Position numbers and translations under genes: made by a program. A stretch of 64,000 bases of DNA from Candidatus Cloacimonadales bacterium (lineage in GTDB: Bacteria > Cloacimonadota > Cloacimonadia > Cloacimonadales > JAIOQZ01): the NCBI GenBank assembly GCA_963662655.2, contig CAXXTU010000002.1, forward strand, positions 3,200,001-3,264,000, in the 5' to 3' direction. Below are positions 11,936-32,461 of the stretch, piece after piece. The notes beneath the pieces are model-generated. The model was not told where the DNA came from, made no database searches, and saw only the letters and a list, made by a program, of their open reading frames with translations. Numbering within the stretch: position 1 is the stretch's first letter; every line of letters starts with the position of its first letter.

Positions 11936-12161
11936 GGTGAAAATGCGCGAAAATATCGCCCGTTTAGTTGTTGCGCATTTCATTGGCATTGAATACGATA
12001 CGCCCAGCCGCCCATGAACCGTTGCCTTGTATCCAACTGCAAGCCAGGCGTTTGCAATTTTCGTGATCCGATTTGACATTTCGCTGTCACAATTTGACAT
12101 TTTGTCCCGTCCTAAAATAGTTGACCAGCTTTTTCGTGTTTGATTTCATTTCGATTGCTTC

Positions 12162-13043
12162 CTACGCTGCGTTCAATATCTCGTTCGGTGTGCGGTAGCC
12201 CTGCGTGATGATGAGCCGTTCTTCGTTGTAGATCCGAACTGCTTCCTCTACGTACTTCAGCGCGTCGTCGAAGTCCCTGAATCTCCGTTCCAGCCCCAAC
12301 TCGTGCTTCAGAATCCCGTTGATGCGCTCCGCCTTGGCGTTGTCGTAGCACTTGCCCGGACCGGTCATGCTGGTGCGATAGCAGTAGCGTCGCAGCGCGT
12401 TCTGGAAGCAGGCGCTGGTGAATTGCGTACCATGATCGGAGTGGTGGATGCAGCCTTTGATATCCACGGCTCCGGCATTGCGCAACGACCTCATCGCCCG
12501 TTTCAGAGAGAGCGCTGGACCATGCGTGCGCAGGTCGGGCTGCAGCGAATATCCCAGGATCGCGTCCGAGTACTGATCCGAGGTCAGCGAAAGGTAGGCG
12601 AATCCGCGTTGCAACCGGATGTAGGTGATGTCGCTCGCGATGATCTGGCCGACGCGGCGAGCGATGATGTCCTTCACCAGGTTCGGGTGTCGACTGCGGC
12701 TGCCCAGGCTCGTGCGGAGGTATGAGCGGTACGCCGTCGACAGCAGCCCGTAGTCGCGCAGGATGCCGAACAGCCGGTCGCGACCAACCTCGAGCCCGTG
12801 CGCCTTCAGCATGTATTGCAGCTTCCGCGCCCCGACGCGTGGCTGTTTCACGCGAATCTCGCGCACGGCGGATACGATCTCCTCCACCTCCGCCTGGAGC
12901 CGATGGAGCCGCTTCCTGTGCTGGTAGTAGCTCTGCTTGCTGCGACCGAACAAGCCGCAAATCACCTGCATGTTCGCGGCTACTTCTCTTTCTTTCGCGA
13001 CAGCTCGACATTCGGTGATAACAGCGAACCAGTCTTTTTTTTT
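12162..13043 (-). CDS. IS3 transposase OrfB (DDE integrase core), read by -1 frameshift
   Basis: ASDITYI, IHHSDHGTQF and YDNAKAERINGILK motifs. Confidence 0.92.
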   Translation of the reverse strand, partial: KKKDWFAVITECRAVAKEREVAANMQVICGLFGRSKQSYYQHRKRLHRLQAEVEEIVSAVREIRVKQPRVGARKLQYMLKAHGLEVGRDRLFGILRDYGLLSTAYRSYLRTSLGSRSRHPNLVKDIIARRVGQIIASDITYIRLQRGFAYLSLTSDQYSDAILGYSLQPDLRTHGPALSLKRAMRSLRNAGAVDIKGCIHHSDHGTQFTSACFQNALRRYCYRTSMTGPGKCYDNAKAERINGILKHELGLERRFRDFDDALKYVEEAVRIYNEERLIITQGYRTPNEILNAA

Positions 13044-13387
13044 GCGCTGATGCCGTACTTGCGCTCGGTCACGTTCACGATCGCCTGCAACGCGCAGTTC
13101 TCCAGCACTTTCTCGCTCAACGCAGCCTGCAAATCCTGCACCTTCTTCTCCAGCTCCGCGATTGTCTTGTCCTTGTAATCTTCTTTCGCCATGCGATCTC
13201 GCTTTTGAGCTCCCTTGCGTCGCGCCGGCTTCACGGCGTCCTCTTTGATCCAGCGATACAGCGTGCGAACGGATATGTCGTACTGCTCCGCGAGCTCCGC
13301 CACGCAGTAGTCGCTCGTCAGCACGTGATGCAGAACACGCGCCTTCACCTCGCAACGCTTCGCCCGTCGTTTCACATTTTCTCCCAT
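12980..13387 (-). CDS. IS3 transposase OrfA (HTH)
   Basis: VAELAEQYDISVRTLYRWIK helix-turn-helix followed by a coiled coil. GGAGG RBS. Confidence 0.88.
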   Translation of the reverse strand: MGENVKRRAKRCEVKARVLHHVLTSDYCVAELAEQYDISVRTLYRWIKEDAVKPARRKGAQKRDRMAKEDYKDKTIAELEKKVQDLQAALSEKVLENCALQAIVNVTERKYGISAKKKTGSLLSPNVELSRKKEK

Positions 13388-13545
13388 ACCTGAGCCTCCT
13401 TCGACCCAACGGTCAACCTATTTCAGGACGGGACACTCTTTGCATTTGACACTACACGGATGAAGCCCCGCTCATGCGATGGTTTTTCTTGACACTTAAT
13501 GAAGGTCGTGCGAGTTTCAATATACTTTAGACATTGGGAGAAAAT

Positions 13546-14349
13546 ATGCTGCTTTACGATTTTCCGGATGCGTACGATCTCTTTTACAACGAGAGTTTCC
13601 AGCAATCGACCCGAGACTTCTACAGCAAGTTTCTGCTTAAGAAAAATCTTCGCGAGGTACTCGATTGCACTGCCGGTTCGGGCCAGATGACAATACCCCT
13701 CGCCCAGATGGGCTACAGCGTAACCGCTTCGGATATCAACCGCAATATGATCCGCAAAGCGAGGCTGAACTTCGTGAAGCTCGATCTCATGGCGAACTTC
13801 GTTACCAGCGATATTCTCGAGCTCGAAGAGAAGGTTAAGAGAACCTTCGACTGCGTCATGAGCACCGGGAATTCGCTCGCCCACGTGAAGAACGATCAGC
13901 TCGAGGATGCCGTTCGCCAGATGGATAGCGTACTCAAGCCGGGTGGGATGCTCTACATCGATTCTCGCAACTGGGACTTGATTCTGGAACGACGGCAACG
14001 TTTTTATCTATTCAATCCGCTTATCCGGGATCGTGGGCGCGTCAATTTCGTGCAGGTGTGGGACTACAATACCGATGGTTCGATGGTTTTCAACTTCCTC
14101 GTCTTCGAGGAGATTGAAAACAAGATTGTCAGCAAGCGCCAGTTTTACGTGATTTACTACCCCTTTACAGTCGAAAGGCTGAGGGAAATCCTGGTCTCGA
14201 TGAACTACAGGAATATTCATTTCTTCAAGCTGGGCGATCCGAGCGTCACCGACCTGTCACAAATCGACTGGTTCGCCGTTACAGCAGAGAAACCCTTCCC
14301 CGAAACAGATGACAACAAGAAGAAAAAGATAAAAGGAGGAAGCAAATGA
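13546..14349 (+). CDS. Class I SAM-dependent methyltransferase (glycine/sarcosine N-methyltransferase-like fold)
   Basis: VLDCTAGSG motif I, GNSLAH and LKPGG. Confidence 0.88.
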   Translation: MLLYDFPDAYDLFYNESFQQSTRDFYSKFLLKKNLREVLDCTAGSGQMTIPLAQMGYSVTASDINRNMIRKARLNFVKLDLMANFVTSDILELEEKVKRTFDCVMSTGNSLAHVKNDQLEDAVRQMDSVLKPGGMLYIDSRNWDLILERRQRFYLFNPLIRDRGRVNFVQVWDYNTDGSMVFNFLVFEEIENKIVSKRQFYVIYYPFTVERLREILVSMNYRNIHFFKLGDPSVTDLSQIDWFAVTAEKPFPETDDNKKKKIKGGSK

Positions 14350-14954
14350 AAGCTTTCAAACTACTTCTGGCTTTAGTTGCTGTTACACTGATTCTCACGG
14401 CATGCGGCGGTCCGGCCAAGACGGTCGAGCGCAGGGCGGTCGATGAGACCATCGACCTGAGCGGACGCTGGAACGACAGCGACCTTCAGCTCACAGCCGA
14501 GCAAATTGTGCGGGATGTTCTCTCTCGCCCGTGGCTGCCGGATTTCATTTCCGCAGAAGACCGAAAGCCGGTCGTGATCGTCGGTACGGTTCGCAATAAA
14601 ACCGCCGAGCATTTGGACACCGTGCCGCTGGTTAACCACATCGAGATGGAACTTATCAACAGTGGAAGGGTCACGTTCGTGGCGAATCAGCAGAAACGCG
14701 AGGAAATCCGCGGCGAGAGAATGGATCAGCAGACGCAATCCTCCGAGGACTCCGCGAAGAGACTCGCTGCCGAAACCGGCGCCGACTTCATGCTTCAGGG
14801 TGAGATCACCTCCATCGAGGACGCGGAAGGCGGACAGAAGGTGATCTTCTACCAGGTCGCGATGGAGCTCATCAATATCGAGACCAACGAAATCAAGTGG
14901 AAAAACACGAAGCAGATCAAGAAATTCATCTCTCAGAAAAGTTCAAAATTCTAA
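14346..14954 (+). CDS. lpoB: Penicillin-binding protein activator LpoB family lipoprotein
   Basis: Lipobox LTAC. DLSGRWNDSD, VRNKTAEH and GADFML.G.I motifs. Confidence 0.82.
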   Translation: MKAFKLLLALVAVTLILTACGGPAKTVERRAVDETIDLSGRWNDSDLQLTAEQIVRDVLSRPWLPDFISAEDRKPVVIVGTVRNKTAEHLDTVPLVNHIEMELINSGRVTFVANQQKREEIRGERMDQQTQSSEDSAKRLAAETGADFMLQGEITSIEDAEGGQKVIFYQVAMELINIETNEIKWKNTKQIKKFISQKSSKF

Positions 14955-14965
14955 GGGGATCGTCC

Positions 14966-16351
14966 ATGAGGAAAATGAACCTTGTTGCGATTCTTGCGCT
15001 GTTCGCGTTGCTCGTAGGGTGCGGCGCGCCGAAGAAAGAGCTTCGCGAGATCGAGAAGAAGCTCGAGAAGAGACAGTTCGACCAGGCATCGCAGCAGGTG
15101 GAAGAGATCAAGGAATCCACATATTCCAAGAAGGATCGCGTGGTGTTCTATCTCGACGCCGGTACCGTCCATCACTACAACCGCGATTTCGACAAGAGTA
15201 ACCAGCGGTTGGAGGAGGCGGAACGAGCGATCGAGGATTTATTCACGAAGAGCATCAGTCGCGCTGCCGCTTCGTATATCCTCAACGACAACATAAAAGA
15301 ATACGACGGTGAGGATTACGAGAATATCTACCTCAACGTTTTCAAAGCGCTGAACTACGTTGGTAAAGACAAGTTCGATGAAGCATTCGTCGAGATTCGC
15401 CGCATTAACAATAAACTCAATCTGCTTGAAGACAAGTACAGGGATTTGGCGGACGAATACAACAAGTCCAAGGACAGCAAGGCGAAGGTTGAAGTGGGAC
15501 GTAACAGGTTCCACAATTCCGCTCTGGGAAGATGGCTGAGCATGTTGATCTATCGCGCGGAAGGCGACATCGACAACGCGCGCGTGGACCGCGAGGCCAT
15601 CGACGACGCCTGGAAGACCCAGAGCCATATCTATGGCTTCGGGAAGCCGGATTTAAGCCATTATCTCGATGCAACGGACAAGGCGCGTATCGATCTGATC
15701 AGCTTCGTGGGAAAGAGTCCCGAAAAGAAGGCGCACACGCTGTACATCCACACGGAGAACAACCTGATCGTATTTGCTTCAACCGCCGAGAATGAGGACG
15801 GAAGGCAGGTCATGACGAACCTTGCACCGATTCAGTGGCCGGGGATCGAGAAGGGGCTTCACTTCAAGTTCGAGATTCCGTTCTTCGAGCCAAGAGGAAC
15901 CATCGTGAAGAGCGTGAAGGTTCTCGTCGACGGCAAGCAGGCCGGAGAGCTGGAGCTTCTGGAAGACATGGAAAAGGTCGCGATCGAAACCTATCAGGTG
16001 AAGAAGCCGCTCGTCCTCATGAAAACCCTCACGCGTACGATCGTCAAAGGGCTGGTGGCTGCCGAGGGCAAGAAGCAGATGGAGAAGGAGATCAAGGATC
16101 CTCTTCTGGCGTTCGGGGCGAGGCTCGCCACGGATATCGCCGTCGACGCGACGGAGAAAGCCGATCTGCGATTGTCGCATTTCTTCCCCGCGAAGGCGAT
16201 GGTGAAGGAACTGGAGGTCACGCCCGGCGAGCATCAGGTATCGCTCGAATACCGCGGCGCAGGTGGCCAGCTTCTCTACACGCACGATCTGGGAATCAGG
16301 GATTTTCAAGCGGGTAAGCTGAATCTGCTGGAGTCGTACTATCTGAAGTAG
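14966..16351 (+). CDS. COG3014-type lipoprotein with N-terminal TPR-like region
   Basis: Lipobox LVGC. Y.GEDYE and EKADLR motifs. Typical neighbour of lpoB. Confidence 0.75.
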   Translation: MRKMNLVAILALFALLVGCGAPKKELREIEKKLEKRQFDQASQQVEEIKESTYSKKDRVVFYLDAGTVHHYNRDFDKSNQRLEEAERAIEDLFTKSISRAAASYILNDNIKEYDGEDYENIYLNVFKALNYVGKDKFDEAFVEIRRINNKLNLLEDKYRDLADEYNKSKDSKAKVEVGRNRFHNSALGRWLSMLIYRAEGDIDNARVDREAIDDAWKTQSHIYGFGKPDLSHYLDATDKARIDLISFVGKSPEKKAHTLYIHTENNLIVFASTAENEDGRQVMTNLAPIQWPGIEKGLHFKFEIPFFEPRGTIVKSVKVLVDGKQAGELELLEDMEKVAIETYQVKKPLVLMKTLTRTIVKGLVAAEGKKQMEKEIKDPLLAFGARLATDIAVDATEKADLRLSHFFPAKAMVKELEVTPGEHQVSLEYRGAGGQLLYTHDLGIRDFQAGKLNLLESYYLK

Positions 16352-16387
16352 GATGAATCGTTGCTGCAACCCGATAAAGGAGATATA

Positions 16388-17401
16388 ATGCGTAAACTAA
16401 TCATAATCACATTACTTGTGTGCTCGGTTTTCCTGTTCGCGAAGAAGCAGGAAGCCCCCGAGTGGCTCGACAACCCCAAGTCGATCTACCCCGACGCGAT
16501 GTACCTGAGCGCTCTGGGTGAAGGCGATACGCGTCGCGGAGCTGAAAGCGACGCGGCGGGAAACCTCTCGCGCATCTTCGAGAGCAAGATCACCGTGGAT
16601 CAGACGTATCAGGAGCGCTACCGGGAATTGACCAAAGGCGTATCCTCCGAGACCGAGGAACTCTCGCAGATGGATCGCAATGTGGGTATCCAATCCGAGC
16701 AGACGCTCTTCAATATTCAGTTCGGGGAATCCTACACCGATCCCAAGGGACGCGTGCATATCGTCGCGTATCTCGATCGCATGAAAACGGGAGAAATCTA
16801 CAGCAGCAAGATCGAGGCGAACGCCAACCAGGTCACATGGTATCTGGGGCAGAAGAAGGAGACCGATGATCTCCTCAAGAAATACGCGCTACAGAACGCC
16901 GCGATTATCATCGCGACGAGCAATCGGGTTTTGCTGGAGCAGCTTCGCATCATCTCGCCGAATATGGCGGAATTCATCGACCTGCCCTACAAGATGACCG
17001 AGCTGGAGACGACCCTGCAAGAGATGGGGAAGAAGCTACAAATATCCATACAGATCAAGGGCGACGAGGAAAACAAGATTGCCAGCTCCCTGAAAGAGAT
17101 GTTAAGCGACGCCGGATTCAGTCTGGGCGATAGCGGTATCCTGAAAATCGATGGTGAAATCTCGTTCGAGATGGTCGATCTGGACAAGCAGGATCAGAAA
17201 TTCGTGCGCTGGGAGATCACGCTCGACCTGAACGATCAGCAAGGCGAAAACCTGATTCACTACTACGAAAAAGGACGCGACGGCCACATATCATATCCCG
17301 AGGCGATGGCACGCTCGATTCGAGAGATCGAGAAGAAGCTGAAAAAGCAGTTCATCGGTAAGCTGAACGATTACATCGATGGGTTAGTGATGACGAAGTA
17401 A
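16388..17401 (+). CDS. LPP20-like exported protein
   Basis: Signal peptide and PEWL..P...YP...YL...GEG motif. Confidence 0.65.
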   Translation: MRKLIIITLLVCSVFLFAKKQEAPEWLDNPKSIYPDAMYLSALGEGDTRRGAESDAAGNLSRIFESKITVDQTYQERYRELTKGVSSETEELSQMDRNVGIQSEQTLFNIQFGESYTDPKGRVHIVAYLDRMKTGEIYSSKIEANANQVTWYLGQKKETDDLLKKYALQNAAIIIATSNRVLLEQLRIISPNMAEFIDLPYKMTELETTLQEMGKKLQISIQIKGDEENKIASSLKEMLSDAGFSLGDSGILKIDGEISFEMVDLDKQDQKFVRWEITLDLNDQQGENLIHYYEKGRDGHISYPEAMARSIREIEKKLKKQFIGKLNDYIDGLVMTK

Positions 17402-17568: not shown

Positions 17569-18138
17569 ATGAAAAAGATAATCTTTGCGCTTGTGATTGT
17601 GCTGGCGATGTTTATTCTCGTGGCCAAGACGCAATCCTATCACCATGTGGAGCCCGGCAAGTGTATCGGCTGCACGCTGTGCGTTCAGAAATGCCCTGTT
17701 CAGGCAATATCCATGCAGGACGGCAAAGCGGTGATCGATCGCGAAAAGTGCATCCAGTGCGGTCTTTGCATCAAAGCTTGCCCGGTGACGGCCATCTCCG
17801 TCGTGGAAGAAGCCGCGGCACCGGATTCTCTTGCGGAACAACCGGATAGCGTCGATACGCCCAAGCAGGAAGAGCCATCCACAGGCATGATCGAGACACA
17901 GGAAGAACCTGCACCCACTGTGGAAGCCGTTGAAGAGCAGATTGCCTCGACTTACTATCACGTACACGATAATAAATGTATCGGTTGCATGGTTTGCCCG
18001 AAATCCTGTCCCGTCGATGCGATTCACATGAAGCAGGGCGTGGCCGTAATCGATACGGAAAAATGCATTAAATGCGGTCTATGCAAACGCGATTGTCCTG
18101 TTGCCGCGATCTCCGTGGAAGAGAAACAATCCAGCTAA
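17569..18138 (+). CDS. Exported or membrane-anchored tandem 2x2[4Fe-4S] polyferredoxin
   Basis: Hydrophobic N-terminus MKKIIFALVIVLAMFILVA. Four CxxCxxCxxxCP motifs in two domains joined by an acidic Pro/Glu linker. Confidence 0.88.
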   Translation: MKKIIFALVIVLAMFILVAKTQSYHHVEPGKCIGCTLCVQKCPVQAISMQDGKAVIDREKCIQCGLCIKACPVTAISVVEEAAAPDSLAEQPDSVDTPKQEEPSTGMIETQEEPAPTVEAVEEQIASTYYHVHDNKCIGCMVCPKSCPVDAIHMKQGVAVIDTEKCIKCGLCKRDCPVAAISVEEKQSS

Positions 18139-18165
18139 TGATATAAAAATCACCTTGGAGCTTTC

Positions 18166-21100
18166 ATGCGTAAACAACGTTTACTGCTGATTCTGATGCC
18201 GTTGCTCTCCTTCTTCTTGTTCTACTGCACGGACAAAATCAGCAAAAATCCCGAAAACGACGGCGACGTTCGCGTCGAGTACTCGAGCTGTACCGCCTGT
18301 TATGAGTGTATGGACCTGTTCAGTTGTCCGCAGAATGCGATCTACATCGATGAAATGCGTGGAACCGCCACCATCGATCCTGATAAATGCGTCCGCTGTA
18401 TGCGCTGCATCACCGAATTCACCTGCGAGTACAATGCATTCACCTTCAAAGAAGATTTGATTCCGCCTGCGCCCATCACGGATTTCAGTGCGGTTTCCGA
18501 TTCGATGGGAACGATCGACATCAGCTTCACCGCGACGGGTGACGATTCCACGTCAGGAATCGCCTGGCGATATGAGCTCAACCTGAAAAACGCAAGTGGT
18601 GAAGTACTGCTCCCCGATTTCCAGCCCAACGCGCCAAAGATCGCCGGTTTGAAGGAAACGTGGCACCTGAGCGGCCTGGATTCCCCTCAGACGGTTGCCG
18701 TTGGCGTAAACGTGTTTGACGATTGCGGTTTGTACGCCTCTTCGCAGACGTTAATCGTGGATATTTCTTCCGATTATCCCGATGTTACGGCTCCCTCTGC
18801 CATCACCGATCTGATCGCCCAGCCGGATGCGGATTATGTCACCCTATGGTGGACCGCTCCCGGAGATGACGGCGATGAAGGCACCGCGGCAGCTTACGAT
18901 ATTCGATACAGCCGGACGGCGATTGACAGCCTGAGCTGGGATCAGGCAAGCGTCTTCGAGAATACTATTGCCCCCACTTCTCAGGGTGTGAAGGAGACCT
19001 GCCGGATAACATTGCCGGATCAGGCGAACTACTACTTCGCCGTGCGTGCGCTGGACGATAGCGGCAATATCGCGAGTGTTTCCAACAACGCCCAGGCCGC
19101 CATGACGGCGGACGTTACTCCTCCCGACCAGATAACCACGCTGGTGGCCGGAAACGAGACGACAACCTCGGTTACGCTCACCTGGGAGGCTGTAGGCGAT
19201 GACGGAAGCATAGGGGTTGCCGACGATTACGTCGTGAAATACCACGTGTTGCCTATTACTGCGCAAAATTGGCAAGCGGCCACGACGTACGACGCAGAGA
19301 TGTCTCCTCAACCCGCCGGTGAGACGGAAGAACTCATAATAGAAAACCTGGAAGAAGGATTTGAATACTACTTCGCGGTCAAGGCCGTCGATAACGCCGG
19401 AAACCAGTCGGCGATCTCCAATGTTGCCCACACGCAAACCGTGGACATCCCCGATGAGACGGCTCCTTCTGCAATCGACGATCTGGTCGTGAGCAACACC
19501 TCGACCAGCACCGCGCAATTGCGCTGGACCGCCCCCGGCGGCGACGGCGATGAGGGCTATGCATTTCAATACGTCGTCAAGGCGTCCACACAACCGATCA
19601 CCATTGATAACTGGACTGCGGTCGACGAAATTCCCAATGATTTGTCGCCACAGGTTGCCGGTTCGCAGGAATCGTTCATCGTGACGGGCCTGGAGGCAAA
19701 TACAACCTACTGGTTTGACGTCCGTGCGGTTGACGACGCGCTGAACATCGCAGATCTATCCAACGTCGCGCAGGGACAAACGGCATCCGAAGACGACACC
19801 GTCGCTCCAGGAGCGATCACCGATTTATTAGCTCACGAGGATGATCCAAACATCCTTCTGACATGGACATCGACCGGCGATGACGTCAGCGAAGGGACCG
19901 CGTCATATTACGAAATCAGATATTCTTTCGAGACGATTACCGGTTCCAACTGGGCGGAGGCGACACTTCTGCAAAATCTCCCCATACCCGAAACGGCCGG
20001 AACGCAGCAGCAATACATTTTTACATCTCCGCAGCAAAACACTGCGTATTACTTTGCGATCAAGGCTTTCGACGATGCGCTGAACGCGTCGGAGCTCTCC
20101 AACATCGCGGAGGGAGTGATTGCGGACGATATCGCGCCCTCGCAGATCGACGACCTGCAAGCGACAGCCGGCACCTCGGACATCGAGCTGCAATGGACCG
20201 CTCCTGGCGACGACGGCGATGATGGTACGGCGTTTTCATACGAAATCCGCATGAGCACGGTTGCGATTACCCAGGCGAACTGGGACGATGCCCAATTGCT
20301 GGAAAATCCCCCGACACCTTCTACCGCGGGGACGGCGGAAAGCTACACGGTTGTTGCGCCGCAGCAGGATCAGACGCTTTTTTTCGCCATTCGTGCGACG
20401 GATGACGCGGACAATGTCTCGGCTGTGTCCAACAACGCGGAATCGGGAATCTTCGATACAACTCCGCCGGCGGATATTACGGATTTGGATGCGACGCAAT
20501 CCGGTGAGGAAGCGCTTCTGACCTGGACGGCTCCAGGAGACGACGGTTTTACCGGTACGGCGGAAAGCTACGAGATTCGCTATGCCACGACGATTATCGA
20601 CGAGACCAACTGGGCCTCGGCCACGCTTCTGAGCAATGCTCCATATCCTGAATCGGCGGGAACGCAGCAGCAGTTCTCGGTAGCAGGACTCACGGCGGAT
20701 ATCCAATACTACTTTGGAATCAAGACCCTCGATGACGCCGATAACCAGTCGGGGCTTTCCAACATCGCCGATGTCACGCTGGGCGACGACACGGTTGCGC
20801 CTGCCGCCGTGACCGATCTCGAAGTGGTGGAAAGCTATGTGAACCTCTCGACGATCCGTATCTCCTGGACAGCCCCGGGGGACGACGGCATTACCGGCAC
20901 GGCGGATCATTACGAGATTCGTTATTCGAACTTGCCCATCACCGATGCCAACTGGAGTAGCGCTTCGCTATTCGGCAGTCCGCCCGATCCGGCAAGCGCT
21001 GGAACCGCGCAGACGTTGAATGTGACCGGCCTGGATGAGGGTGAATTGTACTACTTCGCGATCAAGGCGTTCGACGAGATCGGGAATGCAGGTGACTGCT

Positions 21101-21312
21101 CCAATTCACCGGCAGGGAAGATCGTCTACACGATCAGCGCTTCGCAGTGTCGTGATTGCAACCATTGCATCAACCGATGCGATCAGCACGCGATATACGA
21201 TGCGGGTCCTTACAAGGCGATCGATCCCGAACTTTGCATCGCGTGCGGCGAATGCGATCCGTACTGCCCGTACAACGCGATCAGCCCAGCAGTTATAGCT
21301 TATAACGACTAA
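18166..21312 (+). CDS. Lipoprotein with N- and C-terminal ferredoxin-like domains flanking eight FN3 repeats
   Basis: Signal ending LFYC. N-terminal CTACYEC-x5-CP and CVRCMRC-x5-C. Eight acidic repeats with consensus WTAPGDDG..GTA..Y.IRYS. C-terminal CRDCNHCINRC and CIACGECDPYCP. Confidence 0.88.
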   Translation: MRKQRLLLILMPLLSFFLFYCTDKISKNPENDGDVRVEYSSCTACYECMDLFSCPQNAIYIDEMRGTATIDPDKCVRCMRCITEFTCEYNAFTFKEDLIPPAPITDFSAVSDSMGTIDISFTATGDDSTSGIAWRYELNLKNASGEVLLPDFQPNAPKIAGLKETWHLSGLDSPQTVAVGVNVFDDCGLYASSQTLIVDISSDYPDVTAPSAITDLIAQPDADYVTLWWTAPGDDGDEGTAAAYDIRYSRTAIDSLSWDQASVFENTIAPTSQGVKETCRITLPDQANYYFAVRALDDSGNIASVSNNAQAAMTADVTPPDQITTLVAGNETTTSVTLTWEAVGDDGSIGVADDYVVKYHVLPITAQNWQAATTYDAEMSPQPAGETEELIIENLEEGFEYYFAVKAVDNAGNQSAISNVAHTQTVDIPDETAPSAIDDLVVSNTSTSTAQLRWTAPGGDGDEGYAFQYVVKASTQPITIDNWTAVDEIPNDLSPQVAGSQESFIVTGLEANTTYWFDVRAVDDALNIADLSNVAQGQTASEDDTVAPGAITDLLAHEDDPNILLTWTSTGDDVSEGTASYYEIRYSFETITGSNWAEATLLQNLPIPETAGTQQQYIFTSPQQNTAYYFAIKAFDDALNASELSNIAEGVIADDIAPSQIDDLQATAGTSDIELQWTAPGDDGDDGTAFSYEIRMSTVAITQANWDDAQLLENPPTPSTAGTAESYTVVAPQQDQTLFFAIRATDDADNVSAVSNNAESGIFDTTPPADITDLDATQSGEEALLTWTAPGDDGFTGTAESYEIRYATTIIDETNWASATLLSNAPYPESAGTQQQFSVAGLTADIQYYFGIKTLDDADNQSGLSNIADVTLGDDTVAPAAVTDLEVVESYVNLSTIRISWTAPGDDGITGTADHYEIRYSNLPITDANWSSASLFGSPPDPASAGTAQTLNVTGLDEGELYYFAIKAFDEIGNAGDCSNSPAGKIVYTISASQCRDCNHCINRCDQHAIYDAGPYKAIDPELCIACGECDPYCPYNAISPAVIAYND

Positions 21313-21328
21313 GAGATAAAGGATTCTC

Positions 21329-21565
21329 ATGAAACGAACGATTATTATTGCGGCGATCTTGATCGTTGCTTTATCGATACTGATTGCAGCAACCGAGACG
21401 AAACCGGAGGTCTTCCGGAAAGACTGTACAGGATGCGGTGATTGCGTAAAAGCATGTCCGGTGAAGGCGATAGAAGTCCACAATGGCAAGGCGGTGATCG
21501 ATAGCAGGAAGTGTATCAATTGCAAGCTCTGCACAACGAGCTGCACCTTCGGAGCAATCCGGTGA
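21329..21565 (+). CDS. Small exported 2[4Fe-4S] ferredoxin
   Basis: Signal peptide MKRTIIIAAILIVALSILIAA. Motifs CTGCGDCVKACP and CINCKLCTTSC. Confidence 0.85.
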   Translation: MKRTIIIAAILIVALSILIAATETKPEVFRKDCTGCGDCVKACPVKAIEVHNGKAVIDSRKCINCKLCTTSCTFGAIR

Positions 21566-21572
21566 GGCGCGT

Positions 21573-21845
21573 ATGAAGAAACTGCTGATCTATTCCGCTT
21601 TACTCATGATACTGCTTGGGCTTTTCATGACCGCCTGTGATAAAAAAGACTCGATCACGACATCCGCTTCCCCCTCCGCGTTTTACGAGATCGATAGCGA
21701 CGCTTGCATCTCCTGTGGGCGTTGTGTCGATGTTTGTCCATACAATGCCATCCAGTATGATGGGGAGGAGCCGGTCATCATCCAGACACGATGCAAGAGA
21801 TGTGGCGAATGTGTCTCCGTATGCCCGAAGGATGCGATCCAATGA
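21573..21845 (+). CDS. Lipoprotein 2[4Fe-4S] ferredoxin
   Basis: Lipobox MTAC, Ser/Thr linker, CISCGRCVDVCP and CKRCGECVSVCP. Confidence 0.85.
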   Translation: MKKLLIYSALLMILLGLFMTACDKKDSITTSASPSAFYEIDSDACISCGRCVDVCPYNAIQYDGEEPVIIQTRCKRCGECVSVCPKDAIQ

Positions 21846-23026
21846 GAAAAACCATCCTGTTTATCATCCTTGCAGGCATGAGTTGCGTTCTTCTCGGACA
21901 GACGGTTCTGAACTCCGAGATGGACAGCCGGGAAGGCTTTGTCGAGCGTTTATATCAATACTTCGATGTCCGGTTCGAGAATGGATTCGAGCTGAGCAAC
22001 ACCTTGTACATGAAGGTCAGCGAGGATCAGGACGAGCTGGAGCGGGATTACCTGAGAAATTACATTCGCGACAAGCTGCGTTTCTCCTTGTTCCGAGAGA
22101 GCTTCTATATTTCTTCGCACGTTGGAATTCAATACTATCACGACGAGCAGCACGAGACGCGTATCTCTGGTGCGGATGAGCAATACCGGCTCAAGAACGC
22201 TTTCTCCGGCGGTATTGATTTCTTCGGAACGTGGGACGGATTGGAGACGCTGCTCGAAGCGAGCTGGTTTGCGAACTACTATGATCGCTATGTGTTCAAC
22301 GACGCCGCGCAAAATTCCGATGATGATTGGGTCGTGAAGGAAGAGAAGAATCAGCTCGATAACGATGGAACCATCAAGGCGAGAATTGCCTATAAATTCA
22401 GCGATTATATCAAGCCGTTCGTGGAGGTGAATCACTTCAACGACATGAACGACATCGACACCTACGACTACACCGAGTACCGGCTCGGAAACCATTTGCT
22501 GAGCAAACTGGACAACCTGCATACTGTCGAGATGGAGGTTGCTGTCGTGAAGACGGACGCGTTCGAGAATCTTCCTGCCTATCTGGATTTCGATCTTCGT
22601 TTGACCAGCAAATATATCCATGACTGGATGTTCATCAACCGCGTCTCCGATAAAATCTGGAAGAACGATGACGAGAGCTCGAAAGCATACGGAAACGGTT
22701 TCTGGGAGTGTATCCTTCAGCATAATCTGAATTTCGATCGAGAGAACCGGGTCGACCGTTTCCTGATGGCGATCAAAAAGCATTTCGACGAGAACGTAAC
22801 CATCGCTCGCACTGGGTTGATGTACTACTTCGGGCCGTTCAGCCTTTACGGCGCATATCATTACTACTTCGGTAACGACCGTGTTAACAACTACAAGACC
22901 GGCATGGAACTTTCGTGGTACTACCCGGCTTACAGCGCGCGAATTTACTACGGCTTCTCGTTGATCGACGCGAGGTATGTCGAGAATACAACCGTTCACA
23001 GTATAAACATCGAGTTAGGCTATTGA
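21842..23026 (+). CDS. Predicted outer-membrane beta-barrel protein
   Basis: Signal peptide, alternating aromatic/hydrophobic strands, C-terminal SINIELGY (aromatic end, BAM-signal-like). ATGA overlap with the previous gene. Confidence 0.65.
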   Translation: MRKTILFIILAGMSCVLLGQTVLNSEMDSREGFVERLYQYFDVRFENGFELSNTLYMKVSEDQDELERDYLRNYIRDKLRFSLFRESFYISSHVGIQYYHDEQHETRISGADEQYRLKNAFSGGIDFFGTWDGLETLLEASWFANYYDRYVFNDAAQNSDDDWVVKEEKNQLDNDGTIKARIAYKFSDYIKPFVEVNHFNDMNDIDTYDYTEYRLGNHLLSKLDNLHTVEMEVAVVKTDAFENLPAYLDFDLRLTSKYIHDWMFINRVSDKIWKNDDESSKAYGNGFWECILQHNLNFDRENRVDRFLMAIKKHFDENVTIARTGLMYYFGPFSLYGAYHYYFGNDRVNNYKTGMELSWYYPAYSARIYYGFSLIDARYVENTTVHSINIELGY

Positions 23027-23027
23027 G

Positions 23028-24404
23028 ATGATTCAATCGTTGGCTGAAGGTTTTTCGCTCGGACTTGCGACCGGAATTGTTTGCCTCTCCACTTGCACGC
23101 CGATTTATCTGCCCTATCTGCTGAGCAGCGATCGCAAGCTGCTGAAGAGCTTTGGGGTGATCCTGGAGATATCCGCTGGAAGGTTCTTCTCTTATCTCAC
23201 GTTCGGCGCGATCGCGGGATTTCTGGGAGCGCAGATCGGTCAGGTGAATCGCGATTTGTTCACCGCGATTGCCTACATCATGCTCTCGGTGTATTTGATT
23301 CTCTCCGCTGTGAGGTCGCGGAACGAGCATAAAAAATGTGCGGTTCCCAAGATGGCTGCCATGACGCGCAGTCCTTTCGTATTAGGGATTCTAACAGGTA
23401 TAAACTTTTGCCCGGCTTTCCTCATCGCGCTTTCCAATGCGCTCAACCTCGCAGGCGCGTTGAGTGGAATGCTGCTGTTCATGGGATTTTTCTTCGGAAC
23501 TTCGCTGTTCCTGATCCCTTTGGCGTTGGCGAATTTTCTGACGAAGATCCGCCAGATGAAGCAGATCGCTCAGGTTGCTTCCGTGCTGATCGGTATCTGG
23601 TTCATCGGCAAGGGGCTTTTCATGCTCTATGGATACGCGGTGGGTACGGAGGTCAACAATCCGTTCGCGCCCGGCAAGGAGCTGGCGGTTGTTTCATCCG
23701 AAGCGGATATGGCGTATTTCACGGATTTGAGAGATTCGCTACAAGTTCGTACGGATGAGGCTGTCGATCTGCTAGAATTCAGCCCGGGTGGAGCCTTGGA
23801 GAAGAGGAAATCCGTGCTTTATTTCGTTAACCGGACACTGGTCGAGCAGGATTCAGCGGCATTCGAGGGGATGGATTATTTCGCAGTAGAAGCCGGCTAT
23901 CCCATCGGCGAGATGATGATGTATCTCACGACGGTCTTTCAGGGGTGTCCGGACGAAAGTGAATATGGTGACGGGAACAACAACCTGTGCTCCACATGCA
24001 CCCTGACGAAGGGACTTGATTTCTCGGGAAGGTTCCCGGTTGATTTCGAACAAAAAGAATTGTACATGATGGATGTGTTTGCTCCCGGAAATCAACTGGT
24101 CATTCTTGCGGACAACGACGATCCGTACTGGAAAGAACTTCAGAACACTTTGCAAGCCAATATACAGAAACCGATTCAGTTCATGCCTTTCGATCCCGGT
24201 AAAGACTTGCCGAACGAGGAGACGACTGTCTATATCATACCACAATCGGCCGAGCAGATAGCTCAGGACTCGGGGTGGATCGATTCGCTTCATACGATTG
24301 TCGTACCGAAAGGGTATTCGCCTCAGACCATCGCGGGATTTCTCAAGAAGTTCACGTTCAAGGTGGAAAATAGGCTAAGCTGGCATTTCGATGCCGACAA
24401 ATGA
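23028..24404 (+). CDS. DsbD_2/TauE-SafE-like multi-pass membrane protein with Cys motifs and a duplicated soluble C-terminal domain
   Basis: About 6 hydrophobic helices. GF.LGL..G..CL..C, GRF..Y...G and G...G.N.CP motifs typical of the DsbD_2 family. Confidence 0.72.
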   Translation: MIQSLAEGFSLGLATGIVCLSTCTPIYLPYLLSSDRKLLKSFGVILEISAGRFFSYLTFGAIAGFLGAQIGQVNRDLFTAIAYIMLSVYLILSAVRSRNEHKKCAVPKMAAMTRSPFVLGILTGINFCPAFLIALSNALNLAGALSGMLLFMGFFFGTSLFLIPLALANFLTKIRQMKQIAQVASVLIGIWFIGKGLFMLYGYAVGTEVNNPFAPGKELAVVSSEADMAYFTDLRDSLQVRTDEAVDLLEFSPGGALEKRKSVLYFVNRTLVEQDSAAFEGMDYFAVEAGYPIGEMMMYLTTVFQGCPDESEYGDGNNNLCSTCTLTKGLDFSGRFPVDFEQKELYMMDVFAPGNQLVILADNDDPYWKELQNTLQANIQKPIQFMPFDPGKDLPNEETTVYIIPQSAEQIAQDSGWIDSLHTIVVPKGYSPQTIAGFLKKFTFKVENRLSWHFDADK

Positions 24405-25282: not shown

Positions 25283-28122
25283 GACTGACTCCCGAAATGA
25301 TTGGTTCTGAACCACCCCGCCACCATGTCAACCAGCTCCACCGGGTTGGAAGCGTTCCTCAGCCTGGTTGGCGTTATCTGTTTGAAGAATTTGCCATAGT
25401 ACTTCGTTTCGACCCTCGTATCGAGAATCAATACAACGCCGCGGTCAGTTTTGTGGCGGATCAGACGACCGAATCCCTGGCGGTATTTCAGGAGTGCGTT
25501 CGGCAGCATGTAGTGCATGAAGGAGTCCTTGCCGTCATCCTTGAGCTTCTCGATGTAGGCTTCCACGATCGGCTCCGAAGGAACCTGGAATGGCAGCTTG
25601 TAGAGGATGAGGAGCGAAAGGGATTTCCCCTGCACGTCCACGCCTTCCCAGAACGAGGAAGTGCCCAGCAGCACGGCGTTTCCGTGCTCGCGGAACTGGT
25701 CCAGCATCGCGCTGCGGTTAAGTCCCTTGCCCTGCGCAAACATGACCACGTTGTTCTGGTACATGACCTCGCCAAGGTTTTCATACATCTGGTTCAGATC
25801 CTTGTAGGAGGTGAACAGCACCATGGAGCCAACACGCGAAGCGAGTAGCGTCTCTTTGATGAGCGTGGTGGCCTGATTGCCGAAAAACCGGTCGGTGTGC
25901 TCGGGCAGGAATCCCGCGACGCAAACTTCCGTCTGCTTCTCGTAGTCAAAAGGCGAGGGAACGACCAACTCGCGGATGTCTCTCGTCTCGACGAGGGAGA
26001 TTCCCATGCGGGTCGAAAAGTATTTGAAGGAGCCCCTCAGCGCGAGGGTTGCCGAAGTGAAAACGATGGTCGGGACGCGATCGTACAGAAGCGAGTTAAG
26101 CTTCTCGTCCACATCCAGGGGCGCGAAATTGAGAATGCCGTTCGGCACCTCCGGGTCCTTCGCGTAAAAGGACGAGAGCCAGAAAACGGTCTTGCTGAAG
26201 TCGGGTTGCTGGAGCAGCTCGAAGGTTTGCAGGAACTCCTTGCAGCGATCGATTGCCCCATCCAGATGCGTCATGTGGGTGTCGTATTCCACGAAGCTCT
26301 CGTGCGGGACATCCACCAGCGCGTCGCGCAGGGTTTGAAGCTCGTTGCGCAGGGTTCTGAAGAACTGGATCAGCTTGCCCATTTCGCTGTTCAGGAACGG
26401 GTATTCGTTGTTGTCCCGCACGCGCAGCTTTCCGTAGGATCCCTTTTTGTCGACCACCCGTCCCGTTTCCTGGAACAGAACCGGCAGGTCGTCGAAAGAA
26501 AGCGATCGCTGGATTTCCTCAATCTTCGCGTGGACGTATTCCTTGGTGGTTTGGTCGATCCTGCTCTTCGCGAGGGCTGCCTTGAGCTGCGGAAGCGAAC
26601 CGCCCTGGAACCGGCTGCGCTGGGAGTAGAGCTGCCGGATGAAGTAGGTGACATCCATGTGCCCAAGGGAGATTCCCAGATGGCTCGACGCGATGTCCGG
26701 CAGGTTGTGGGCCTCGTCGATGATGAGCTTGTCGTATTCTCCGAGCGTCGCGTTGTTGGAGAGGAGGTCGGAGAGCATGAGCGAGTGGTTGACGATCACG
26801 ATGTTGGCGTTTTCCGACGCCTTGCGTATCCTCATCAGATAGCATCGCTTGTACGCGCCGCACTTCCTTCCGTTGCAGAAATGCCGTTCGGTGCAGGTCT
26901 TGCGCCATACGGAGCCGAAGCGTGAGCGACTGAAAGCGCTGTTCTCCGAGACGTCGCCGGTCTTGGTGTAGTGCATCCACACTTCGAGCAGAAGCAGCCC
27001 GTCCGCGTCGAACGATGAAAGCGCACCCGGGATGTCGAAATGCAGCTCGTCCCATTTGCGCTGGCACACATAGTTGTCGCGTCCCTTGAGAATCACCGCC
27101 GAGAAGGGGATATCCACACTCTCCATGACCTGGGGTAGGTCCTTGTTGAAGAGCTGCTCTTGCAGGTTCTTGGTGTTTGTTGTGACAACGACTTTGCCTC
27201 TTTTATCGTGGGTATGGCGGATGGATGGAATCAGGTACGCGAGGGATTTCCCGACGCCCGTTCCCGCTTCGACCAGCAGGTATTCCTTTTCACGGAAAGC
27301 TTGCTCCACCGCGTGCGCCATTTCCACCTGGCCCTCGCGGAGTTCGTAACCTTCGAACGTATTCGCGAATCTTCCGCCTGTCCCGAAGATGGCTTCGATC
27401 GTGCTGAACTGCGTCTCATCCGGCTTGTGCGAGAGGATGTTGTCTGGAATCGTGAACGGGTGCTTCTTGGATTTCTGCAGGAGCGCGTACTTGCGCTGGT
27501 GATCCACGATTTGCTTGAGAAATCCCGCCGATTCCCTTCCTGCAGCCTCCAGGAGCTGCGCGATGGTGTTGTTCAGCTTGAGCGGAATGACGTTCAATAT
27601 CAGATCGGTGAGTTTGGCGAAAAGCTGTGCCGTCGCCCGGGCATCGTGGATCGCGCGGTGCGCGGATTCGATTTCGATGCCGAAGAATTCGCATACGGTA
27701 CCGAGCTTCTGGTCGCGAATAAACGGCAGGTAGATTCTGGCTAGTTCCAGCGTGTCCCGCGTGGGGTTGAAAAGCTTCGGCTGGCCAATTCTCTCCAGGT
27801 GGTGATTGATGAAACCGACATCGAAGGGCGTGTTGTGACACACGACCGGCGCATCGCCCAGAAACGCCTGCAAGCGTCTCAACGCTTGCTCGACAGGCAG
27901 GCCGGAAGCAAGCTGCGCGTCCGTGATGTGCGTGAGTACCTTGATGAAATTCGGTACGGGTCCCTGGGGCTTGACGAACTCGGAGAATTCCTCGGTCACA
28001 TCGCCGTTAACAACACGAATCGCCGCGATTTCGATGATCTCGTCATCGCGGGGATCAAGCCCGGTTGTTTCGATATCAAGCGTGATGAAGTGGGAGATCA
28101 ACTCAAAGTTTATCGAGTCCAT
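25279..28122 (-). CDS. dinG: Bifunctional DnaQ-like 3'-5' exonuclease / DinG-family helicase
   Basis: LDIETTG, HRAIHDA, EAGTGVGKS, IIDEAH, SFWEGVD and QGFGRLIR. Confidence 0.93.
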   Translation of the reverse strand: MDSINFELISHFITLDIETTGLDPRDDEIIEIAAIRVVNGDVTEEFSEFVKPQGPVPNFIKVLTHITDAQLASGLPVEQALRRLQAFLGDAPVVCHNTPFDVGFINHHLERIGQPKLFNPTRDTLELARIYLPFIRDQKLGTVCEFFGIEIESAHRAIHDARATAQLFAKLTDLILNVIPLKLNNTIAQLLEAAGRESAGFLKQIVDHQRKYALLQKSKKHPFTIPDNILSHKPDETQFSTIEAIFGTGGRFANTFEGYELREGQVEMAHAVEQAFREKEYLLVEAGTGVGKSLAYLIPSIRHTHDKRGKVVVTTNTKNLQEQLFNKDLPQVMESVDIPFSAVILKGRDNYVCQRKWDELHFDIPGALSSFDADGLLLLEVWMHYTKTGDVSENSAFSRSRFGSVWRKTCTERHFCNGRKCGAYKRCYLMRIRKASENANIVIVNHSLMLSDLLSNNATLGEYDKLIIDEAHNLPDIASSHLGISLGHMDVTYFIRQLYSQRSRFQGGSLPQLKAALAKSRIDQTTKEYVHAKIEEIQRSLSFDDLPVLFQETGRVVDKKGSYGKLRVRDNNEYPFLNSEMGKLIQFFRTLRNELQTLRDALVDVPHESFVEYDTHMTHLDGAIDRCKEFLQTFELLQQPDFSKTVFWLSSFYAKDPEVPNGILNFAPLDVDEKLNSLLYDRVPTIVFTSATLALRGSFKYFSTRMGISLVETRDIRELVVPSPFDYEKQTEVCVAGFLPEHTDRFFGNQATTLIKETLLASRVGSMVLFTSYKDLNQMYENLGEVMYQNNVVMFAQGKGLNRSAMLDQFREHGNAVLLGTSSFWEGVDVQGKSLSLLILYKLPFQVPSEPIVEAYIEKLKDDGKDSFMHYMLPNALLKYRQGFGRLIRHKTDRGVVLILDTRVETKYYGKFFKQITPTRLRNASNPVELVDMVAGWFRTNHFGSQS

Positions 28123-31100
28123 ACCGTTTCATTTTCTTGATGAGTCCCTGCCTGCTGAGGCCGAGATCCTTGGATGCCTGCGTCTGGTTGTAGCTCCTGG
28201 TTTCCAGTGCGTTGACGATCATCTTACGCTCGATTTCCTCGACGGCTTCCTTGAGCGTGGTTTTGCCCAGGAGGTCTACAGTCTCGGCGTTCTCGGCGTA
28301 CTTGAACACTTCCTCGGAGAGGTCGGACGGCTTGATGAACGCGTCGTTCTCGGCCAGCGTCACCGCACGCTCGATTTCGTTCTCGAGCTGGCGGATGTTT
28401 CCGGGCCAGTCGCAGTTCTGCAGGTACTTCATCGCTTCGTCGGTGATTCCCAGGACGTTCTTGGTCATTTTCTTGTTGTATTTATCCAGGAAGTGGATTC
28501 CCAGAAGCGGAATATCCGATTTACGATCCTTGAGCGACGGGACCCTGATCTTGATCACGTTAAGGCGGTAATAGAGGTCGAGACGGAACTCGCCCGATTT
28601 CACCTTGTCGCTCAGCAGGACGTTGGTTGCGCAGATCACACGAACATCGACCTTGGTTGTCTTGGTGGAGCCAACGCGCTTGATCTCTCCTTCCTGAAGG
28701 AATCGCAGGAGCTTGGCCTGCGTGGAGAGGCTGATGTCGGCGATTTCATCCAGGAAGAACGTACCGCCGTCCGCAATCTCGAAAAGCCCCTTCTTGTCGT
28801 ACGCGGCACCGGTGAATGCGCCCTTAACGTGACCGAAGAGCTCGCTTTCGAGCAGGGTTTCCGGAAGCGCGCCGCAGTATTGCGCCACGAACTTCTTGTT
28901 GCGGCGATTGCTGGTATAATGGATCGCCCGGGCGATGAGTTCCTTGCCGGTACCGCTGGAACCTTCCAGCAGAACGGTGGTCGGCGTGTTCTTGATTTTA
29001 TCGATAACCTGGAAAATCTCCTGCATCTTCTCGCTCTTTCCAATGATGTTGGTGAACCAGTTTGCAGCGTTGAGCTCTTCGCGGATGATCGCATGCGATT
29101 TTGCCAGATTGCTGTGTCGAATGTTCTCGATGATGACCACGATCTGGTTGCAGAGCGCGCTCATCAGGTTATACATCTTCTCGGTGAAGTAGTGGCTGCC
29201 GTGCATGCTGAACAGGAGTACCACGCCGAGGATATTGTTTCTGATAATGAGCGGGAAGGAAATGATGTTGTTGAACTGCGGCGCTTCATGGGGCTGCTTG
29301 ATGTTCATACCTTGAGAGGAAGTGAACGTCTCCTGAATATATTGCAACAGGATATCGTATTCCTCGTTATCGCTGGAGAAATGCTTGAAGATCAGGTACT
29401 CCCACGATTCCGGGGTGGAGCTGCTGTTGTAGAGCGAGAGAATTCCTCCGTCCGCCTCGGAGAGGCTGACCAGGTTATCCAGCGCGGAATCGAGCAGGAC
29501 ATCGAAATCGGAGATCGTGTTCAGCTTCTGCGTGATTTCGTAGAAGCGGTTGAGCAGCGATTCCTGACTGCGGCTCTCCTTGAGCTCGATGGCGTGTTCT
29601 TTGGTGATCTTCTGGATCAAGATGTCGTTCTGCTCCAGGAATTTGATGGTGTCGAAGTCCTTCACGATCTTCTTGTTGTTCTGGAGAATCTCTAGCGCTT
29701 GTTCCCACTCCTGCTTCTCGAAGAGAATCTGCGCGTATTCGTAGTTGGCTTGGGCGAGTTCGAAATGGTTCTTGGTCTCGATGAAAATCTCTATCGCCTT
29801 TTTCAGATAATCCTGCGCAACTTCGATGTTCTTCCTCTCCAGGAGAGCCATGAGATAGTAGGAGTTGCCGATCTCGAAGCGATTGTTGATCGCCTCCGCC
29901 ATCTTGATGGAGTGTTCCAGGTAGTAGACGGCGCTTTCGTAATTGCGCGTCTGGATGAAGTAATACGCCTGCTTCTGGCACGCTTCGATCATCGATTTGT
30001 CTTTGCTGTGGATGCTCTTGAAGAAATCGTAGCTTTCAACCAGGTAGGCGTACGCTTTACCGTATTTGTGCAGGTGTGTCAGGATGCTTCCGAGGTTGCC
30101 GTAGAGCTCGGCCTTCAGAATTTCGTCTTGCAGTTCGGGGACAATCTCCAATCCCTTGAAGTAGAGGTCGTATGCCATGGTATATTCGCCGCGTTTTTCG
30201 TACACAGCGCCAAGATTGTTGTAGGACCGGCACAGTCCGTCGAGGAAATCGTTCTCCTTGGAGCGCTCGACAGCATTCTCGTAATATTCGATCGCCCTGG
30301 ACCAGTTGCCCGACTTGAAGTAAAGCGCTCCGAGGTTGTTCAGCGCGCTGATCAGATTGCGGGTCAGGTTGAAGGTCAAGGCGGTTTCCATGGACAGGTT
30401 GTATGCCTCGATCGCCTTGTCGAACTCGGCGTTGTTCATGTAGGTTACGCCAATATTGTTGTATATGTTGGTGATGTTGTAGCGATCGCTCAGCATCTTC
30501 TGTATATGCAACGCCTTGTAAAGGTAGTCCAGCGACTGGATATAGTCGCCCTTATCCTCGAGTAGAGCTCCGAGGTTGTTGTAGCACACGGAGATTCCGT
30601 TCAGGTTGAAGCGCTGCTGCTCCTGGTGGAGGCTTTTCTCGTAAAATTCCTGGGTCTTGTCCCATTCCCCTTGAAGATAAGCGATGACGCCGATGTTGTT
30701 GCTGATCGCGGCTATCCCCTCCAAGTTGTTGGCCTTGGCGTAGAAGCGTTCGGCTTCCTTGTAAATCATTTCAGCCTTTTCCCACTGGTTGCTGCTGTAA
30801 AACACCTTGCCGCGAAGCTTTTTGATATCGGCGTTCAGGTTCAGCTTGACCTGCTCGTTTTTGATCTGGGCGGCGGTTTCCTGCGCTTCGTCCAATTGGA
30901 GAATGGAATCTTCGAACTTCTCGAGGCCGATCAGGATATCCGACTGAAGCAGCAACATCTTGCATTTCCAGTATGGATCGGTTGCGTTCCCCTGATACTT
31001 GCGGATAATCTCGAGAGCGAAAGAGGAGGAATTGATCGAGAACAGGCTGTCCGCCAGGCGGAACACAATCTCTTCTGCTGGCAATTGATGCGCGGTGCAA

Positions 31101-32368: not shown

Positions 32369-32461
32369 GATTCCCCTCATTTTCGCTGGCATTTGCTTGA
32401 TTTTTAGATAAATAGGTGCCTTTTCGTTAACGCCGATTACACATGCCAACTATGTTCTCAT

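Follow-up and report, generated by a model that had tools for sequence, protein, structure and literature searches.

A conserved operon of exported ferredoxins and a predicted outer-membrane beta-barrel in Cloacimonadota: a candidate heme-free electron path across the cell envelope

The porin-cytochrome conduits MtrCAB, Pcc, and PioAB combine in one layout a plugless outer-membrane barrel, a soluble redox protein that is exported, and lipoproteins with redox function. In NapGH and PFD modules a NapH-family membrane protein is paired with an exported polyferredoxin, and the ApbE-flavinylated extracytosolic systems presented in passages of PMC8238504 form heme-free chains on NapH-like or DsbD-like membrane proteins. 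All these arrangements have a likeness in the locus analyzed here, an operon from a Candidatus Cloacimonadales bacterium (contig CAXXTU010000002.1, positions 3,200,001 to 3,264,000; this stretch of 64,000 nucleotides is referred to as the window). The operon occupies window positions 17569-24404 and consists of six genes, G1-G6, on the plus strand. It may form an iron-sulfur (Fe-S) electron path that connects the inner membrane with the cell surface and involves neither cytochromes nor twin-arginine translocation (Tat); judged from sequence, we give this reading an even chance. The genes are as follows.

17569..18138, plus strand: G1, 189 amino acids (aa), Sec leader followed by a pair of 2[4Fe-4S]-type ferredoxin domains, with about 50 aa of acidic, low-complexity linker between them
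18166..21312, plus strand: G2, 1048-aa lipoprotein (Cys21) with a ferredoxin domain, 8 FN3 repeats, and a second ferredoxin domain
21329..21565, plus strand: G3, 78 aa, Sec leader and a single 2[4Fe-4S]-type ferredoxin; core
21573..21845, plus strand: G4, 90-aa lipoprotein with a single 2[4Fe-4S]-type ferredoxin, a short tether, and a fixed C-terminus; core
21842..23026, plus strand: G5, 394 aa, predicted 20-strand plugless outer-membrane beta-barrel without a Pfam or NCBIfam family; core
23028..24404, plus strand: G6, 458 aa, six-helix membrane protein of the DsbD_2 family (PF13386) that carries an alpha/beta domain in two copies; accessory

A preliminary description of this DNA had noted six co-oriented, tightly spaced genes, and the intergenic gaps of 27, 16, 7, -4, and 1 bp agree with it. 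Its count of 12 ferredoxin motifs also holds (four in G1, four in G2, two in G3, and two in G4), and Pfam Fer4 scores above the cut-off in each of these proteins. The exported proteins, however, are five rather than the four described, because the barrel G5 also carries a leader. The reported lack of the CxxCH heme motif was borne out: a motif search of G1-G5 found neither this motif nor a twin-arginine motif, and inspection of G6 by eye likewise gave none. The ferredoxin domains contain two conserved four-Cys motifs each, as 2[4Fe-4S] ferredoxins do. Signal peptides were assigned by hydropathy rules and leader conservation. In the genome, 37 open reading frames (ORFs) have two or more strict ferredoxin motifs. 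Four of them satisfy the strict signal-peptide rule, and these are exactly G1-G4; hence, the grouping of exported ferredoxins is not a chance one. A looser rule also flagged two proteins considered below, a secretion-tagged ferredoxin and a NapH-like protein, and one false start. A scan for promoters and terminators gave a signal no better than chance.

The barrel is present in 56 of the 232 Cloacimonadota genomes when a narrow profile is used and in 112 with a wider profile; these and other phylum counts are descriptive and are not tests, as related genomes are non-independent and many are incomplete. G3 and G4 are encoded immediately 5' of the barrel in 8/8, 18/20, and 9/10 loci of three batches, the misses being two contig ends (one with the barrel at the contig start) and one decayed locus. 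The gene cluster is thus conserved elsewhere; a lack of such conservation would, by the preliminary description, have told against its reading. The small ferredoxins are the most constant partners of the barrel, and by gene order the core of the system is ferredoxin G3, lipoprotein ferredoxin G4, and barrel G5. The trio is kept without G2 in the loci of the third batch. In some Cloacimonadaceae-like genomes the core was not found, one example being the complete 2.2-Mb genome G009. An alignment of 39 G3 sequences has all eight cluster cysteines in every one of them; in G4 the lipobox Cys22 is invariant (36/36), as are seven cluster cysteines, and the remaining one is conserved in at least 90% of sequences. 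A literature search of partial coverage, with few subscription journals, found no description of the operon, which is real, widespread, and apparently undescribed.

A different arrangement is observed in loci L069, L083, L161, L163, L164, and L169, where the genes for the NapH-like protein, G1, and G6 are joined and G2-G3-G4-barrel is lost, with a 58-aa remnant of G2 in some. These loci suggest that the outer module may be deleted as a block.

The region 21842-23026 had been called beta-barrel-like, and the AlphaFold2 fold of G5 (29 sequences) is indeed a barrel, with 20 strands starting at residue 19 and no plug (predicted local distance difference test, pLDDT, 87.8; predicted template modeling score, pTM, 0.78). 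The model has the plugless outer-membrane barrel of porin-cytochrome conduits and lacks the 22 strands and N-terminal plug of TonB-dependent receptors. No family was assigned by Pfam and NCBIfam profiles, the best match among PDB sequences had E 0.035, and across 29 barrel members no Pfam family occurred in more than one. Homologues were recovered by word-index searches (4 and 12 proteins) and through a representative library (26 proteins). Of 30 neighbors in the ESM Atlas, 27 have no family; one cluster carries SlipAM on 19% of its members, which is a lead only. The fold matches are generic outer-membrane barrels with 5-11% identity. On the model, G5 is a barrel of no assignable family.

Since the top fold matches of G5 are TonB-dependent metal receptors, the operon can also be read as a system of reductive metal acquisition. 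Here, the exported Fe-S carriers would act at the surface as reductants of Fe(III) or another metal, the barrel would be an uptake channel, and G6 would handle metals or thiols at the inner membrane, all serving nutrition and not energy metabolism. This scenario is in line with the relatedness of the NapH-like protein to CcoG and NosR and with passages of PMC8238504 that link flavinylation systems to iron assimilation. It is disfavored by the absence of a plug domain from the model, by the generic and low-identity character of the matches, and by the lack of a conserved TonB, Feo, or ABC metal transporter neighbor in unannotated ORF lists inspected by eye. Moreover, Fe(II) is usually available in anoxic habitats. 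We consider metal acquisition unlikely.

Another scenario is suggested by the position of a plugless barrel next to lipoproteins and by the SlipAM lead: a Slam- or LptD-like translocon that surfaces folded, cluster-loaded ferredoxin lipoproteins, with no electrons passing via the barrel. The persistence of the G3-G4-barrel trio without G2, the fact that G3 is not a lipoprotein, the presence of another secretion system in the genome, and the 27 Atlas matches without a family make such a role improbable.

The two larger ferredoxin proteins differ in architecture. G1 is likely a periplasmic tethered shuttle, and its homologues come after the NapH-like gene even where the locus has no barrel. In a variant of G1 (L014:323-865, L047:4521-5039, L057:4087-4653) the first ferredoxin domain is swapped for a domain of about 90 aa without a Pfam match. 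In G2, the two N-terminal ferredoxin motifs have a longer spacer, CX2CX2CX5-6C, and about 880 of the 1048 residues belong to the 8 FN3 repeats. The listed homologues with both ferredoxin domains are 598 to 1720 aa long, depending on FN3 number. The six residues after the lipidated Cys contain on average 1.81 D/E in G2 (21 sequences) vs 0.84 in G4 (37 sequences). The G2 protein is likely a tethered surface arm of variable length. An Atlas search with G2 residues 21-205 returned FN3 clusters only, all under 0.8.

G2 is missing from many loci, and elsewhere it is replaced by a ferredoxin fused to a type IX secretion system (T9SS) tail. The source genome also encodes such a protein.

C2:1563089-1563871, minus strand: T9SS-tagged ferredoxin (locus L064), with a leader, a dicluster ferredoxin, CarboxypepD_reg, and a T9SS tail

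This gene is unlinked to the operon in the source genome and is found inside it in relatives; a search with the protein gave one near-identical protein. The T9SS proteins SprA and PorV are present in the source genome. Among the 35 barrel genomes in which G6 was not found, 28 have a DUF2271 gene at most 3.7 kb from the barrel, and all six linked DUF2271 proteins examined have a T9SS tail. DUF2271 is described in passages of PMC8238504 as a demonstrated substrate of ApbE flavinylation, and ApbE is present in five of five genomes tested, the source genome included. A gene of a flavinylation family near the barrel, together with ApbE, points to the substitution of one redox part for another. As judged by domain content and gene order, the surface partner alternates between the ferredoxin-FN3 lipoprotein G2, the T9SS-tagged ferredoxin, and the T9SS-tagged DUF2271 protein.

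Two membrane proteins are candidates for the inner-membrane link. One of them is encoded apart from the operon in the source genome.

C2:1473513-1474295, minus strand: NapH-like membrane polyferredoxin (locus L065), single copy in the source genome, unlinked to the operon

Its homologues are present in 180 of the 232 phylum genomes and in 104 of the 112 barrel genomes. The gene is adjacent to the operon in four of the eight first-batch loci and often lies within the operon in relatives; in four of five loci from genomes without G6, the next gene encodes a G1-like exported ferredoxin. In its predicted outward loops the protein has invariant H35, C38, C44, and C143; it also contains two CX3CP motifs and, toward the C-terminus, cluster motifs. 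The source-genome copy scores above the PF12801 cut-off, and its homologues score 58-63 bits with TIGR02163 vs a cut-off of 213.

The other candidate is G6, proposed in the preliminary description as a DsbD-like component of the conduit. This multi-pass Cys-containing protein does belong to DsbD_2 (PF13386, E 4e-20, 73 bits at a curated cut-off of 24.9), and, like CcdA/DsbD_2 proteins, it has six helices, the first of which contains Cys-x-Pro and the fourth Cys-Pro. Its invariant cysteines are C19, C23, C104, and C128. The soluble alpha/beta domain is duplicated in the source genus and in genome G006, and the copies are joined by a three-Cys linker (residues 307-325), in which CP..CxxC is conserved in L066, L067, and L077. 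A Foldseek search with the G6 model gave nothing under E 0.001, the best Z of 8.7 being to a generic receiver-like fold. G6 is present in 95 of the 232 phylum genomes, 77 of which also have the barrel, and in some loci it is directly 3' of the NapH-like gene and G1. However, it was not found in 35 of the 112 barrel genomes and is unlinked to the barrel operon in the three same-genus genomes and some others. G6 is thus accessory and not the core inner-membrane unit, as gene content indicates, and the NapH-like polyferredoxin is the likelier inner-membrane link in its place. A role of G6 as a universal maturation factor was ruled out, because G1-type and G3/G4 proteins are also encoded by genomes in which no G6 was found. 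An 830-aa flavoprotein (dihydropyrimidine-dehydrogenase-like with DHO_dh) is encoded directly 5' of the operon or of G6 in L128:3152-5647, L130, L135, L159, and L124.

The preliminary description overlooked that the organism is Tat-less. TatC was not found in the source genome or in 110 of the 112 barrel genomes, and it is present in nine of the 232 phylum genomes. With TatC in just two of the 112 barrel genomes, the operon ferredoxins are presumably exported unfolded by Sec; none of the 98 Cloacimonadota-type G3/G4 leaders has a twin arginine. Export as such, for which the preliminary description had noted N-terminal signals, is supported by conserved leaders, by the invariant lipobox Cys of G4, and by the existence of T9SS-tailed versions of the ferredoxin domain. 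It is very probable, on sequence grounds, that dicluster ferredoxin domains are exported by Sec and T9SS in these Tat-less bacteria.

A remaining alternative is that the leaders are RnfB-like membrane anchors, the ferredoxin domains are cytoplasmic, and the barrel is an unrelated neighbor. Some room for this explanation is left by the rule-based assignment of the leaders and by the cytoplasmic site of Fe-S assembly in every case known to us. The basic N-termini, the invariant lipobox Cys, the occurrence of the same domains in fusions with FN3 repeats and T9SS tails, and the constant adjacency of the barrel make it very improbable.

A comparison with Tat-positive bacteria is possible because the species collection contains 75 G6 loci, and four of these come from Fibrobacterota or Chitinispirillaceae. 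TatC is present in all four genomes. In three of the four loci, several exported ferredoxins in succession and a gene resembling a barrel lie 5' of G6, two of the loci starting with an FN3-ferredoxin lipoprotein, and in three of four a NapH-NapG fusion with an internal twin arginine lies 3' of G6. Proteins of the NapH-NapG type are demonstrated to be Tat-dependent in passages of PMC5449189. The G3 profile gives the proteins at the G3 position their highest scores (66-71 vs 41-54 bits). Two of the three have twin-arginine leaders, in contrast to 0/98 in Cloacimonadota. Part of the ferredoxin set appears to use Tat where it is present, as cofactor-loaded proteins do, with Sec used at the same positions elsewhere.

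If the operon proteins cross the membrane by Sec as apo-forms, loading of Fe-S clusters must follow export. The source genome encodes one NifU and NifS-like proteins, all without leaders, and SufBD was not found in four of four genomes of the genus. The absence of Tat and the cytoplasmic location of NifS/NifU, which make cluster loading difficult, agree with a view of the exported domains as non-conducting stores of metal or sulfide, as buffers for oxygen or redox state, or as sensors of Zn, Fe, or heavy metals, the operon protecting or reporting on the envelope. Two-component genes inside the cluster in two loci, L147 and L148, could be explained in the same way. Still, the strict dicluster eight-Cys pattern of G3/G4 is kept across the phylum with its Pro, Ile, and Gly residues, equivalents in Tat-positive genomes have twin-arginine leaders, and the genes are linked with NapH/NapG-type and flavinylation-family proteins. 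Storage or sensing is hence rather improbable. Cluster loading of the exported domains is probable. Fe, sulfide, and cysteine can self-assemble into Fe-S clusters, according to PMC8505563.

The source genome is 99% complete. The cytochrome c assembly protein (PF01578) was not found in it, and just one of its ORFs contains two CxxCH motifs. MenB and MqnA/D were not found either, which makes a quinol donor doubtful. The sole UbiA-family gene, of unassigned subfamily, is next to a polyprenyl-synthase-like gene (C2:1783390-1785041), an arrangement that we take to be like the archaeal-type ether lipid genes reported for the phylum. Other gene sets resemble Rnf and Nqr operons. Cloacimonadota are abundant in digesters and anoxic sediments. 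A genome study of the phylum covers Rnf, Nqr, and hydrogenases, and the operon does not appear in its passages (PMC8542988). Passages of a review propose that the phylum may favor direct interspecies electron transfer on the indirect grounds of pili genes and few hydrogenases (PMC8892533).

Based on these observations, the following path can be proposed. The NapH-like polyferredoxin would pass electrons between cytoplasmic ferredoxin and the periplasm, where G1 would ferry them on its flexible linker. G3 and G4 would bind on or inside the plugless barrel and provide insulation for the electron step across the outer membrane, by analogy with MtrA in MtrB. The surface carrier could be the near domain of G2, its far domain on the FN3 arm, the T9SS-tagged ferredoxin, or the DUF2271 flavoprotein, and it would exchange electrons with minerals, humics, or partner cells. 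The apo-proteins exported by Sec would gain Fe and sulfide outside the cytoplasm, either spontaneously in anoxic sulfidic water or aided by G6, which may keep cysteines reduced or deliver Fe/S. As to the direction of electrons, disposal of fermentation reductant is our preferred guess.

Several observations weigh against this path. TonB-dependent transporters match the G5 model with Z 17.7-15.8, level with or above MtrB. The eight FN3 repeats between the ferredoxin domains of G2 mean that it is not a continuous wire; at about 4 nm per FN3, by our own estimate, these domains are too distant to make a fixed wire, except where the arm bends back on itself. The NapH-like gene is more widespread than the barrel, and their link is therefore not exclusive. 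The linked DUF2271 proteins have TSAS or SSAS in five of six cases, and the published [S/T]GA[S/T] at that site in one of six; the 28 linkages are non-independent, as 27 of them belong to one family, and DUF2271 was not found in the source genome. In Fibrobacterota, several ferredoxins retain Sec leaders despite Tat, and the barrel was equated with G5 by position, a profile comparison (one sequence) giving 2.4% probability. No exported copy of an Fe-S assembly protein was seen in the source genome, none of the inspected loci has a linked terminal acceptor or enzyme, and we know of no precedent for Sec export of an Fe-S protein. Overall, the heme-free Fe-S conduit of the preliminary description is partly supported, by the barrel fold, conservation, and export, and is amended in that the DsbD-like protein is not a core unit and G1 and G2 are tethered carriers and not continuous wires.

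The co-oriented 5' genes at window positions 13534-17401 (plus strand) encode a methyltransferase, an LpoB-family lipoprotein, a long lipoprotein, and an LPP20 protein, and they are not conserved beside the operon in the inspected loci. An overlapping pair of transposase-like ORFs is located at 12112-13409 (minus strand), with a second copy near C2:1615400-1616700. The minus-strand region 28106-32449 encodes a 1429-aa protein with repeats, the end of which resembles a sigma-54 activator domain.

More broadly, the operon may represent a third class of trans-envelope conduits, with Fe-S clusters in place of hemes or flavins, in about half of Cloacimonadota genomes. In such a class, apo-ferredoxins exported by Sec, Lol, and T9SS would have their clusters built in the periplasm and on the surface and would thread a dedicated 20-strand porin, and a cytochrome-free fermenter would swap low-potential electrons directly with minerals or methanogens. 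We offer this tentatively, at somewhat less than an even chance. If true, it tests two rules: that Fe-S proteins leave the cytoplasm solely folded via Tat, and that outer-membrane conduits require multiheme cytochromes. Even without a conduit, Sec and T9SS export of dicluster ferredoxins in Tat-less bacteria would demand an unknown route of cluster assembly. The operon also supplies concrete, small, expressible proteins for testing direct interspecies electron transfer in Cloacimonadota.

Compared with the known systems, G6 differs from CcdA/DsbD_2 proteins in having four invariant cysteines and extra outward alpha/beta domains, with no specific structural match, and a cytochrome c or thioredoxin partner was not seen in G6 loci. 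Unlike in NapGH, the membrane homologues score below the NapH cut-off, G1 has a Sec leader, and TatC was not found; the operon resembles NapGH but lacks its Tat export of the periplasmic Fe-S subunit. The Fibrobacterota version has true NapH-NapG fusions carrying twin arginines, as in passages of PMC5449189. The ApbE-flavinylated systems differ in their carriers, which here are ferredoxins, and their DUF2271 adjoins the barrel in relatives of the source organism. The words "porin", "beta-barrel", and "Cloacimon" do not occur in the main text of PMC8238504, nor do "porin", "barrel", and "Cloacimon" in that of the follow-up, PMC11334425. Finally, MtrB (6r2q_B) is one of many generic barrel matches of G5 (Z 15.7, root-mean-square deviation 6.3, 343 aligned); it is larger (649 residues) than the barrel of 20 predicted strands and has no sequence likeness to it. 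Unlike MtrCAB, Pcc, and PioAB, the operon has no heme motifs, in a genome where the assembly protein for cytochrome c was not found, and its carriers are small ferredoxin domains on linkers. Thus, lacking hemes, the operon lies outside the class of porin-cytochrome conduits despite its similar layout.

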